DNA of 26,618 nt from a virus. The stretch lies in IMG/VR virus record IMGVR_UViG_3300022552_000376; one strand, given 5' to 3'. The position numbers were made by a program, and so were the translations under genes. The stretch's first letter is position 1. The number at the start of each line of letters is the position of its first letter. Below the pieces are notes generated by a model. The model did no database searches, was not told where the DNA came from, and worked only from the letters and a program-made list of their open reading frames with translations. Of the stretch, positions 1 to 5,922 are shown in pieces.

Positions 1-5
1 GTACT

Positions 6-113
6 AGGGGGGAGGGAAGAGGAAGGGGGAAGAGGAAGAGAGGGGAAGGAGAGAGGGGAGAGAGAAGAGGAGGAGGAGGAGAGGGAGAGGGAGAGAGAGG
101 GAAGAGAGGGAGG
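6..113. repeat. 108-nt pure polypurine (G/A-only) low-complexity tract
   Basis: No C or T between positions 6 and 113; contains several G3-G6 runs and GAG/GAGA iterations. Confidence 0.95.
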
Positions 114-163
114 CTCAAATTGGAGTGTATGCACAAAACTGTGCATTAACAAAACACTCTTAT

Positions 164-183
164 TTGTTCATACTTGTTCATAC
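164..183 (+). repeat. Perfect tandem repeat, 2 x TTGTTCATAC
   Basis: Copies at 164-173 and 174-183. Confidence 0.9.
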
Positions 184-267
184 TGGAAAGGTAGCACAAA
201 CCTTTCTGTGAGTGTTACTAAAATTCTCACTTTAGAACTTTTCGGATGTTTAAACTTTTCTTTCGTT

Positions 268-285
268 GAACGAATGCTTTAAATA
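268..285 (+). promoter_or_regulatory. Putative archaeal promoter (TATA box TTTAAATA)
   Basis: TTTAAATA at 278-285 with a purine-rich segment upstream; sits about 25 nt before the GC-rich structured region starts (~309). A second TATA-like TTTAAACT lies at 249-256. Confidence 0.6.
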
Positions 286-307
286 GTGTTGAAAGAAAGT
301 GATTAGT

Positions 308-664
308 GATGAGCGGGGGTGGAGGGGGACGCACCCCCGTGAGGCAGGCGAGGTGGCGACGAGGCGAACCCAGCCTCGTAGGCAAGGTGATGAACTCCTC
401 CCTTCAGGGTAAGGAGTGATTGCCATCGCTCTTGAGAGGGAGCGGGTAGATGCCACCCGACCTGTGAGGTGTTCCTACCCGCTGTGAGTGATATGGTGGT
501 AGATGCACTTCCCCTGTGGAAGTTTCCTACCACCAGAGTGTGTGGATGCTCTCCCAGTTGAGGAGATTCCCACACACGAAAGAAGAGCGGAGAGCAAGTT
601 TCTGAAACACAGGTTAGCGGATGCTCTCAACAACTGCTCCATCCTCATTTTCCCTTTATTTTTT
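308..664 (+). ncRNA. Putative structured non-coding RNA (or long structured 5' leader), unknown family
   Basis: GC-rich island between a TATA box and a T-rich tract. Stems: 314-321/332-339, 359-365/373-379, 381-385/420-424 (k-turn), 427-433/438-444 (GAGA tetraloop, 2 G-U pairs), 441-449/475-483, 494-502/527-535, 538-545/570-577, 590-596/622-628; possible end-to-end pairing 308-316/634-643. Confidence 0.7.
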
Positions 665-666
665 CC
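641..666 (+). terminator. Pyrimidine/oligo-T tract, putative terminator
   Basis: ATCCTCATTTTCCCTTTATTTTTTCC directly after the last stem of the structured element. Confidence 0.55.
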
Positions 667-683
667 AAATCACAAGTTTCATC

Positions 684-713
684 CTCCCTTCACTACCGCA
701 AGGAGTGGGGGAG
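684..713 (+). promoter_or_regulatory. GCAA-tetraloop hairpin upstream of the first gene
   Basis: CTCCCTTCACT-a-CC-GCAA-GG-AGTGGGGGAG with one G-U pair and a bulge, 14 nt upstream of the SD at 727-733. Confidence 0.55.
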
Positions 714-742
714 GCGATTTTTGGATGGAGGTGTTGGATGAG

Positions 743-1213
743 ATGGATGTGAAAGGGCTGGAAAGGTTGTATGAGAGCGTGTGGCGTGAGGATGGAGCAA
801 AGGAGAGGGCTGGCGAGAGGAATGGCTCTGGTATAGGTGTGAGGGGAAATGGAGCAAGGAAAAGAAAGAGAGCGTTATGGAGACAAATCAAAGAGCCAGT
901 TTCTCCAAAGGGACTTATTCGCTTTGAGAACGGTGTATTCAGGGTTGTGCAGAGATTTGGGCAGTTGTATGTTGTGCCAAAGTGGAGATATGTGCGGATA
1001 ACAGGAAAGGGAAGGAAGACAATTCAGGAGGCACAGGAAATTCCAGTAATGACTTACGAGCAATTCTTTGACAAATATCTCTCACACATGCAGAGATGGA
1101 ACACACCAGACATTAATGGCATAAGGATTTCAGGAGTTCAGCAGAAGTTCCTGAAGAGTATTGCGGAAGAAGGAGTGCTTCCGATGACTGGTGACATAGT
1201 GAGGGGGTGCTAA
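743..1213 (+). CDS. Hypothetical basic protein (~156 aa)
   Basis: SD GGAGGTG at 727-733 precedes the in-frame ATG at 743. The longer 503 start runs through the hairpins and T-tract. Contains an Arg/Lys-rich patch RKRKRALWR. Confidence 0.7.
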   Translation: MDVKGLERLYESVWREDGAKERAGERNGSGIGVRGNGARKRKRALWRQIKEPVSPKGLIRFENGVFRVVQRFGQLYVVPKWRYVRITGKGRKTIQEAQEIPVMTYEQFFDKYLSHMQRWNTPDINGIRISGVQQKFLKSIAEEGVLPMTGDIVRGC

Positions 1214-1258
1214 ATGTGGAAAAGGGGTAAAGGATTTACCTCTCGGTGGTGGTGAAGG

Positions 1259-1423
1259 ATGAAAACAATAGAGGAAGTTATTGTTAAGATTGTCAACACA
1301 GGGATAAACACATATATTGAACTACCAGAGAAGATACCGCAGTTCAGTGATGGTGAGCGGTTAGAATACAGAGAAGCACAGGATGGAACTGCTGTGATAG
1401 TGAAGTATCCTTTCAAGGATTGA
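1259..1423 (+). CDS. AbrB/MazE/SpoVT-like small DNA-binding protein (54 aa, not in ORF track)
   Basis: MKTIEEVIVKIVNTGINTYIELPEKIPQFSDGERLEYREAQDGTAVIVKYPFKD resembles the swapped-hairpin pattern K-V-x-x-x-G-N-S-x-x-I-x-L-P; SD GGTGGTGA upstream. Confidence 0.6.
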   Translation: MKTIEEVIVKIVNTGINTYIELPEKIPQFSDGERLEYREAQDGTAVIVKYPFKD

Positions 1424-1437
1424 TTGGGGTGTTGAGG

Positions 1438-1674
1438 ATGTGTGTAGAAGCAGAGGATGTGAGGAAGGGGTTGGAGAGTATAGACAAGGAAATTCAGCGA
1501 TTGAGGGAAGGGCGACGGTTGATTGAGAATGCATGGGCTCGTTTCACATTAATGCACAAAGATGATGTTGCAGATGTATTGAACACAGCATCTCACATGG
1601 TAGAGAAGGAGTTGGAGAGGTTGGAGAGAGCGAAGAGAATGTTTGAGGAGGAGTTAAGAAGGTTGGAAGGATGA
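1438..1674 (+). CDS. Coiled-coil hypothetical protein
   Basis: Charged heptad-like helices; start uncertain (1420 or 1438). Confidence 0.65.
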   Translation: MCVEAEDVRKGLESIDKEIQRLREGRRLIENAWARFTLMHKDDVADVLNTASHMVEKELERLERAKRMFEEELRRLEG

Positions 1675-4967: not shown

Positions 4968-5588
4968 ATGAAGGATATTGTAGATGTTCATTATGGTGAG
5001 CCTAAAAGAGGATGCGGATTTCGCAAAATTTCTTCAAGGTCAAAGGTTTTCTACTACCTTTGTGGAAGTGGAATATCTCTTCCTTGTGATAGGTTACCAT
5101 ATAAGTTGGATGTGTGTCCAGTTTGTGGAAGTGGATTGAAGTTTCACAGAGGTTTTCAGTGGCTTGACTGGAGAAGATACGCAGGAGAACATAATGAATG
5201 TGAGTGTGATGAATACTGCTATGTTTGTCATCCAAGGCAAGGAGAGAGATATGGATTGATGTGGGTTGGAGAGCGGTTTTATACACCAAGGTCATTCACA
5301 CTTGAGGCAGAAAGGTTGGGTGTGAGTAAATTAGTTCCAACTCTTCCAAAAGAACTTGAGATTGGCAAGACAAAGGTTTTACTGGCACATAGGAAAGCAT
5401 GGAAAAACAGGGAGCCAGCGATATTTTATGCATTTGTGGTGAAAAGAGTGGATGTGCTTGTAAAAGCAGAGGAAGCAGATGAAGAATGGGTAGAGCGGTT
5501 GAGAGAGAAGGGAGTGAATGTGATTATTGTTGGAAGGAATGAGGAGAAGCAAATAACATTAGAGGAGGTGAGTAAGAATGAGGTGTGA
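4968..5588 (+). CDS. Cys-rich hypothetical protein (multiple Zn-binding motifs)
   Basis: RGCG, CPVC, CxC-x3-CxxC; near the C-terminus a PIP-like QITLEEV. Confidence 0.8.
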   Translation: MKDIVDVHYGEPKRGCGFRKISSRSKVFYYLCGSGISLPCDRLPYKLDVCPVCGSGLKFHRGFQWLDWRRYAGEHNECECDEYCYVCHPRQGERYGLMWVGERFYTPRSFTLEAERLGVSKLVPTLPKELEIGKTKVLLAHRKAWKNREPAIFYAFVVKRVDVLVKAEEADEEWVERLREKGVNVIIVGRNEEKQITLEEVSKNEV

Positions 5589-5922
5589 AATCTGTGGAGT
5601 GGAGTTGAAAATTGAGCATGACACTAAATTCGGTTATGTTACTTTCTATTGCCCAAACTGTTCAATTAAAAGACAGATGGAATGGATTAGGGTTGCAAGG
5701 AAATCTCGTTCTGCATATATCACAGCAACACTCCACAGTTTGGAAAGAAATGAAGATGTCTATTTGTCAGCTGTTGGAGGAGAGAGGATAACAAAGATGT
5801 TCTGGTGTGTGCATACAATCACAATTCAAGGAATTGCAGAGATTTCAAACACGACAGTGCGACGACTGAATGGAGGAGCGGTTGAAGTGGGTATTGTCCT
5901 TCACAGGAAGAAGGTGAAGTAA
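5578..5922 (+). CDS. Zn-ribbon plus Alba-like nucleic-acid-binding protein
   Basis: CEIC ... CPNC, followed by VARKSRSAYITATLHSLERNEDVYLSAVGGERITK, resembling Alba (VGKKPVMNYVLAVITQF..EVxIKARGRAISR). Confidence 0.6.
   Translation: MRCEICGVELKIEHDTKFGYVTFYCPNCSIKRQMEWIRVARKSRSAYITATLHSLERNEDVYLSAVGGERITKMFWCVHTITIQGIAEISNTTVRRLNGGAVEVGIVLHRKKVK

Follow-up and report, generated by a model that had tools for sequence, protein, structure and literature searches.

The stretch of viral DNA analysed here (the window, 26,618 nucleotides) carries all of its genes on the + strand, and its GC skew is strongly positive throughout. Among the genes are those for an RFC-like clamp loader, a Cas4-like nuclease, a primase, a family-B DNA polymerase, NrdD, a dUTPase and an XPD-like helicase. 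The gene that adjoins the feature described below, ORF 725, lies at 725–1213 on the + strand and encodes 162 amino acids when read from the ATG at 725, or 156 when read from the ATG at 743. Its start, ATGGAGGTG at position 725, is conserved in relatives. Homologues of its product numbered 55, with identities of 59–99%, and one of them (P0033, 66% identity) is on OP413839, Methanophagales virus PBV082. PBV082 is a Pletoitzamnavirus of the Itzamnaviridae, a family whose members are spindle-shaped, have circular genomes and infect ANME-1 archaea (PMC9894754). By this relatedness to a classified member the window virus is an itzamnavirus, and ORF 725 is best explained as the first gene of its replication arm. 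No non-coding RNA is mentioned for ANME-1 viruses in the same paper, where 'non-coding' and 'ncRNA' each occur 0 times (PMC9894754).

The product of ORF 725 gave no Pfam, PHROG or usable Atlas match, and no Foldseek match at E ≤ 0.001. Its AlphaFold model had a pLDDT of 55, with a small beta-barrel at residues 47–98. Since the model is of low confidence and no fold or family was matched, the protein cannot be called RNA-binding.

Upstream of the gene, the window begins with a purine-only (G/A) repeat tract (1–115). In one relative (L050:1400–1500), a purine-rich repeat has a serine-recombinase gene on one side and the RNA promoter on the other, and from this position it follows that the tract in the window is intergenic and not a genome end. 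A serine-recombinase (resolvase) gene was found upstream of the same region in three relatives. The tract is perhaps related to an origin or to recombination. Also upstream of the promoter are an inverted repeat, TGCACAAAACTGTGCA, and a direct repeat, TTGTTCATAC, present twice (129–147 and 163–186); several relatives have comparable elements, which may be sites for a regulator.

For comparison we used 47 metagenome loci and 14 assembly loci encoding the neighbouring gene. An archaeal TATA box, TTTAAATA (278–285, + strand), is present in nearly every related locus. It lies about 20–25 nt upstream of the first conserved RNA nucleotides and, judged by what is known of archaeal promoters, is probably the promoter of the hairpin-bearing RNA. 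A conserved core RNA follows (306–424, + strand), then an insert with the three hairpin units (441–577), and then a 3' hairpin (585–640, + strand; seen in the fold of 425–640). The segment closes with a conserved 3' tail, GCTCCATCCTC, and an oligo-T run, TTTATTTTTT (655–664), which together span 636–664 on the + strand; tail GCUCCAUCCUC and oligo-T run recur in related loci. The run presumably acts as an archaeal terminator for this RNA. Just upstream of ORF 725, and outside the hairpin cassette, a further hairpin (683–714, + strand) pairs CCUCCC with the Shine–Dalgarno-like GGGGGAGG; it is conserved in relatives, with differing middle sequences. This order of TATA box, core, variable insert, oligo-T run, hairpin and gene was found in about 60 related contigs. 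We read the segment from near 306 to 664 as a putative virus-encoded + strand non-coding RNA or long 5' leader.

Some features near the start of the gene may be noted in their own right. The hairpin at 683–714, which would sequester the Shine–Dalgarno sequence, is likely a translational control element. The tail sequence CUCCAUCC (639–646) is the exact complement of GGAUGGAG (723–730), within which lies the conserved start codon of ORF 725; one relative (L026) retains this pairing of CUCCAUCC with GGAUGGAG through a G–U. The CUCCAUCC tail could thus be an anti-start element, in cis or in trans. Around the start codon there are three to four occurrences of the motif GGAUG.

The core RNA is present with or without the hairpin units. 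It begins with a box-C-like GUGAUGA (306–312, + strand), followed by hairpin P1 (313–340, + strand), hairpin P2 with the invariant loop GAACCCA (360–378, + strand) and a K-turn-like hairpin (381–424, + strand). When the core of 28 relatives was aligned (alignment A4), P1 and P2 were seen to covary, with double compensatory changes at eight of their pairs; in P1, for instance, GCGGGGGUG/CACCCCCGU stands against GGUGAGGUG/CACCUCACC. The core also has box-like elements GUGAUGA...GUGA, in the order C – D' – C' – D, separated by structured spacers that are very long. The proposed K-turn has an ambiguous register, and relatives with GGUGAAC lose the first GA. In the 3' hairpin of the insert, a fourth GGAUGC (619–624) resembles the 5' half of a unit, and the sequence GGTTAG(C/T)GGAT(G/A)CTCTC of this hairpin is conserved in relatives that carry the insert. 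RNAalifold on five full-length RNAs, too few of them independent, gave long-range pairings that disrupt unit 1 and show no covariation; these were not relied on.

The three hairpin units are all built alike. Each has an outer stem, an asymmetric internal loop with AUGC on the 5' strand and UUC on the 3' strand, an inner stem and a terminal loop. In unit 1 (441–483, + strand) the order is AGCGGGUAG, AUGC, CACC, a 10-nt loop, GGUG, UUC and CUACCCGCU, with an outer stem of 9 bp and an inner stem of 4 bp. Unit 2 (494–535, + strand) reads UGGUGGUAG, AUGC, ACUUCC, CCUGU, GGAAGU, UUC and CUACCACCA (stems of 9 and 6 bp, 5-nt loop), and unit 3 (538–577, + strand) reads GUGUGUGG, AUGC, UCUCC, CAGUUGA, GGAGA, UUC and CCACACAC (stems of 8 and 5 bp, 7-nt loop). 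The first-pass annotation had described three tandem hairpins at 441–577, and the sequence reads exactly so.

The same three sites were returned by a descriptor (outer stem of at least 5 bp, ATGC, inner stem of at least 4 bp, loop of 3–12 nt, TTC), which matched no other site on either strand of the window. On 500 dinucleotide shuffles of the window the descriptor gave a mean of 0.01 matches and a maximum of 1, and on 5000 shuffles of 300–700 it gave none; the objection that such a motif might be as frequent in shuffled sequence is answered by these counts of three real sites against 0.01 per shuffled window. The two-stem hairpin was the minimum-free-energy fold of each unit (z −3.1 to −4.0), and the folds persisted in the contexts 438–580 (z −5.5) and 425–640 (z −4.3). 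With a covariance model built for the hairpin unit (R1), units 1, 2 and 3 scored 56.1, 55.4 and 60.6 bits, the next best site in the window scored 12.9 bits, and no further or degenerate units were found elsewhere in the window. It is clear that the three hairpins are real structures, far beyond chance, and they are best explained as diverged tandem copies of one RNA module.

Units 1 and 2 of the window have CCUGUG in common, as had been pointed out from the sequence. The sharing holds in the window and is not kept by relatives: in L022–24, L050 and L053 the sequence in unit 2 is CCTGCG, and the loop of unit 1 in PBV082 is CAGTTGA, not of the CCTGTG type. The common CCUGUG is therefore probably a relic of duplication. 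Complementarity of the loops CCUGUG and CAGUUGA to 3' segments of the RNA was likewise not conserved in relatives.

Covariation was examined in a structure-consistent alignment (A3) of ten distinct unit variants from the window and related contigs. Across the ten variants 97.7% of the cells were paired, and both-sided changes were found at 8 of the 13 pairs. The covariation score was 0.70, compared with 0.23 in shuffles, of which none in 500 scored as high, and with 0.02–0.17 when the partners were slid. The proposal that the stems covary within a single genome was borne out, the stem differences between the units of the window being compensatory. The relatives offered a further check, namely whether any changed without compensation, and the changes in PBV082, L002 and L019 were all compensatory or G–U wobbles. 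In PBV082, unit 1 has the inner stem CACUC/GGGUG, the new loop CAGUUGA and one G–U in its outer stem, and unit 3 has the inner stem UCUUC/GGAGA. In L002 and L019 the basal pair is changed from A–U to G–C, together with one G–U.

The unit sequences are identical in most relatives, so that conservation of the loop could partly reflect recent spread, and covariation across genomes comes from few independent lineages (PBV082 and L002/L019, with single changes in L017/L187, L022 and L031). Within these bounds the alignment supports the view that the units are RNA structures under selection, with stems that covary around a conserved 4 × 3 loop.

The wobbles inside the stems (A3 columns 4/38 and 16/27, and the closing pair of unit 2 in L022) are all G–U or U–G on the + strand; on the − strand they would be C·A mismatches. 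The TATA box, the oligo-T tract and all of the genes point in the + direction too. The wobble pattern, together with the direction of promoter and oligo-T tract, indicates an RNA of the + strand, and on these signs the hairpin units are identified as a + strand RNA element.

The internal loop had been called invariant. It is identical in the three units of the window and only nearly so across relatives, where three rare variants occur: AUGC is changed to AUGU in L017 and L187, UUC to UAC in unit 3 of PBV082, and UUC to UUU in unit 3 of L031. On a rough reading of A3, only 5 of the 13 stem columns are invariant, and the seven loop nucleotides are changed in just three of the ten variants. In unit 1 of PBV082 both stems and the terminal loop have changed and AUGC/UUC is retained.

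When the loop is written in the register 5'-G-A-U-G-C / 3'-C-C-U-U, the change from UUC to UAC turns a presumed U·U into U–A, and that from UUC to UUU turns a presumed A·C into A–U. The change from AUGC to AUGU alters only the presumed bulged C. As two of the variants create Watson–Crick pairs and the third falls on an unpaired C, the loop is, on these few variants, best read as a stack of weak pairs (A·C, U·U and G·U) plus a bulged C.

Each loop strand AUGC contains an AUG, and that of unit 2, at 503, is in frame with the gene; translation starting at the loop AUGs had been put forward as another role. In the window ORF 503–1213 is open, and a public gene call (P0001, 236 amino acids) uses it. 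Only in the window is this AUG in frame with the gene. L022, L023, L031, L050 and L016, all with these same units, have a stop codon 3 nt ahead of the conserved start ATGGAGGTG, and in PBV082 only 99 nt are open upstream of the start. The extended frame would also cross the oligo-T tract, and the many relatives without units have no such extension. Translational control through the loop AUGs is thus almost certainly wrong, and the in-frame AUG of unit 2, refuted as a start by the relatives, is a coincidence. It may be noted that the 236-residue frame and P0001 over-extend the gene through units 2 and 3 and the oligo-T run, the conserved start being ATG 725.

The number of units per related contig was 0, 1 or 3 among the roughly 60 contigs, about half of which had none. 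Where units are absent, the K-turn-like hairpin runs directly into the tail (L003, 6, 8, 12, 13, 15, 26, 27, 32, 34, 36, 37, 46, 51, 52, 184–186 and 188), and a clean deletion scar, AGCGGGTAG|CCACTCTC, is seen in L028 and L056. Unit 1, the unit most often kept alone, is the sole one in L001, 7, 11, 14, 17, 20, 25, 30 and 187, and in L002 and L019, where it stands beside other structured cargo. All three units are present in the window and in L022–24, 31, 48/49, 50 and 53–55, as well as in PBV082, where the same RNA lies upstream of the ORF 725 homologue; L016, also of the three-unit group, is a sequence cut at its end. R1 found only the known units in the 61 fetched viral loci, and no further or degenerate ones.

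When the contigs were labelled by unit number (0, 1 or 3) on a maximum-likelihood tree of the neighbouring protein, 13 changes were needed, several of them forced by well-supported branches alone. Changes so scattered imply that the cassette was repeatedly gained, lost or recombined relative to the adjoining gene. The three hairpins are therefore an optional, exchangeable accessory cassette in the 3' half of the RNA. Among the relatives compared, none of the downstream genes co-occurred with the units; the Zn-ribbon protein of 5578–5922, for one, has a homologue of 95% identity in a locus that lacks units.

At the same position of the RNA some relatives have larger structured inserts, besides or instead of units (L002:495–900, L019:451–800 and L039:60–330). 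Among them are another GUGAUGA box and a hairpin with a GGGAUGC loop; the site of insertion acts as a hotspot for such RNA 'cargo'. In two other relatives a small Cys-rich, Zn-ribbon-like ORF lies between the RNA and the conserved gene (L004:2330–2560 and L005:440–680), with its own copy of the oligo-T run and Shine–Dalgarno hairpin.

Searches were also carried out beyond the viral relatives. In 68 ANME-1-order genomes, reached through a 16S probe pattern, R1 gave no match at E ≤ 0.1. When five ANME-1-order genomes were searched singly, the best match was 21 bits (E 0.13), which looks like chance. BLAST of 296–680 against the 68 genomes returned only a trivial 20-nt match in a pyrimidine tract, and the loop descriptor found no recurrent site on ANME-1 rRNA-operon loci. 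Mimicry of a host RNA was rejected, no copied host RNA having been found in the ANME-1-order searches. IMG/VR gave no relatives by the exact unit pattern, by the neighbouring protein (alone or as an alignment) or by the core-RNA pattern; two pattern matches lay inside unrelated coding regions and were discarded as chance. No relative of the neighbouring protein was found in GTDB genomes, and a literature search for archaeal-virus non-coding RNAs with L7Ae returned nothing relevant. As far as sampled, RNA and cassette thus appear restricted to these viruses.

The host genomes were also searched for nucleases of the RNase III family. RNase III domains are uncommon in archaea. The domain PF14622 scored above the Pfam cut-off in 45 of the 68 ANME-1-order genomes, in open frames of about 150–480 amino acids, and in a control of 14 genomes it matched in bacteria only. 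The host thus probably has an RNase III.

That the hairpins could not be assigned to a known motif was confirmed by comparison with Rfam, tRNAs, K-turns, bulge-helix-bulge motifs, H/ACA RNAs and loop E, none of which fits. Rfam 15 cmscan of window positions 1–1500 (E ≤ 10) gave only two chance-level matches, of 17.4 bits (gathering score 80) and 15.4 bits (gathering score 42), and neither spans the three units as a whole. The core RNA and the insert had no Rfam match, and ARAGORN found no tRNA or tmRNA in the window. A kink-turn was rejected on the 3' loop strand, UUC, which lacks the GA required for tandem sheared G·A/A·G pairs. For an H/ACA sRNA, an ACA box would be expected 3' of the units, where GUGAGU, GA and GAAAGA are found instead; there is also no K-turn or K-loop in the upper stem, the inner stems are plain Watson–Crick, and the loop offers 4 + 3 nt compared with about 9 or more guide nucleotides. 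The bulge-helix-bulge motif cut by EndA does not fit, the unpaired stretches being directly opposite each other with no register that leaves a 4-bp spacer. The sarcin–ricin or loop E motif (AGUA opposite GAA) does not match AUGC/UUC on the + strand or GAA/GCAU on the − strand, and a − strand reading is disfavoured by the wobble pattern as well. A CRISPR repeat or RNA anti-CRISPR was set aside, as most stem positions differ between units and there was no match in the 68 ANME-1-order genomes.

Several known systems resemble the units in working principle. The RNase III sites of phage T7 early mRNA (R0.3–R1.3, e.g. R1.1) are two-stem hairpins with an asymmetric internal loop. Like the units, they occur several to a viral early transcript, their stem sequences vary and the loop matters for recognition, and the host order of the units often encodes RNase III. 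The T7 sites differ in being bacterial, in lying between cistrons and in having longer stems, whereas the units lie inside an archaeal-virus non-coding RNA and are optional. ToxI and pseudo-ToxI of type III toxin–antitoxin systems also consist of tandem RNA modules followed by a terminator and a gene, with a copy number that varies between viruses (phage PhiTE escapes by repeat expansion), and ToxI RNA acts by binding a protein nuclease. Its repeats, however, are direct repeats of 36 nt, identical to one another, and form pseudoknots with ToxN, while the units have differing stems and only the loop in common; protein-family searches of the window found no ToxN-like gene.

In the guanidine-II (mini-ykkC) RNA, tandem hairpins upstream of a gene likewise have freely covarying stems and few invariant unpaired nucleotides. 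There, however, two bacterial hairpins dimerise around a ligand through invariant terminal ACGR loops, whereas in the units the internal loop is the invariant part and the terminal loops vary. Archaeal H/ACA sRNAs share the arrangement of one to three tandem hairpins with lower stem, internal loop and upper stem near a K-turn-like element. The operators of MS2, PP7 and lambda boxB are small viral hairpins in which a few unpaired bases on an otherwise arbitrary stem form a protein recognition site; they differ in being single natural copies with known partners, the units being present in 0–3 copies in an archaeal virus. By this comparison the units would be members of none of these systems, the nearest parallels being in working principle only.

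The reading that we prefer, with a probability of about one half, is that a trans-acting factor recognises the conserved loop, the copies serving multivalent binding, titration or processing. The RNA would start near 306 under the TATA box and end at the oligo-U of 655–664, upstream of the first gene of the replication arm. In each copy two ordinary stems, free to drift, would flank the same short stretch of distorted helix, and this stretch would be the docking site for an RNA-binding protein or an endonuclease. With one to three copies the RNA would bind or titrate the factor, or be processed by it, multivalently.

Other explanations were weighed against this one. A double-strand-specific nuclease might cut each hairpin, with the internal loop setting the cut, so as to release or stabilise the core RNA or part it from the downstream mRNA. 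The likeness to T7 R1.1 of a two-stem hairpin with an asymmetric internal loop repeated in the transcript of a viral early region, and the PF14622 domain in 45 of 68 ANME-1-order genomes, lend this some plausibility; the stems (8–9 plus 4–6 bp) are short for RNase III, no RNase gene was found in the window, and cutting cannot be essential, given the many relatives that have otherwise the same core RNA and gene with no units. Such processing is a concrete possibility, if a rather unlikely one. The units might instead be operators in a long 5' UTR, bound by the product of ORF 725–1213 in autoregulation or by another viral protein, and control read-through of the oligo-U or opening of the Shine–Dalgarno-sequestering hairpin. 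The RNA does always lie directly upstream of the same gene, with the oligo-T tract and the pairing hairpin between them, and its tail CUCCAUCC (639–646) is complementary to GGAUGGAG at the start codon (723–730). The units, however, do not co-evolve with the gene, as many relatives have gene, tail and hairpin but no units; their number is scattered on the gene's tree with 13 changes, and the ORF 725 protein has no recognisable RNA-binding fold (pLDDT 55), which leaves a role as leader operators unlikely. Conceivable, if unlikely as well, is an anti-defence decoy: hairpins resembling a substrate or partner of some host nuclease or RNA-binding defence protein, which they would titrate early in infection. 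The target would be an RNase III-family enzyme or a toxin–antitoxin nuclease, and the cassette would be tuned in copy number and exchanged among co-circulating viruses in the manner of anti-defence genes.

If the units were recent duplicates that merely fill the RNA or protect its 3' end from exonucleases, the loop would be the same for lack of time to change. The identity of unit sequences in many relatives is consistent with recent spread, and a structural role would also suit a cassette that is optional. The copies within one genome, however, have diverged at most stem positions, in a compensatory way, while the seven loop nucleotides stayed identical; unit 1 of PBV082 kept AUGC/UUC through changes in both stems and the terminal loop; and for protection a perfect helix would serve better than a helix interrupted by a 4 × 3 loop. 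A mere stabiliser is quite improbable on this evidence. An element acting as DNA, in the form of replication-origin hairpins or cruciforms or of sub-sites for a serine recombinase, might be suspected from the purine-only repeat (1–115), from the resolvase gene just upstream in relatives and from the GC skew, positive across the whole window. L051 and L052, however, keep resolvase and repeats with no units. The half-sites match within a unit and differ between units, which suits folding and not the binding of a dimer, G–U wobbles are tolerated on one strand only, and the units are flanked by a promoter and an oligo-T tract; a function in DNA is very improbable.

The RNA that carries the units is a putative non-coding RNA, previously undescribed, of viruses infecting methane-oxidising ANME-1 archaea. 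Archaea of this type consume much of the ocean's methane. To our knowledge, structured non-coding RNAs of archaeal viruses are almost unstudied, and here a virus-only RNA family of about 60 sequences combines a covarying core with a plug-in hairpin cassette of variable copy number. Were the decoy reading true, the cassette would be an archaeal counterpart of pseudo-ToxI or of RNA anti-CRISPRs. On the preferred reading of a recognition surface, the conserved loop would provide a handle, a 40-nt bait for the partner in a host not yet in pure culture. Should that partner prove to be a nuclease or defence factor of the host, the pair would be the first known RNA-level interaction between virus and host for these archaea.
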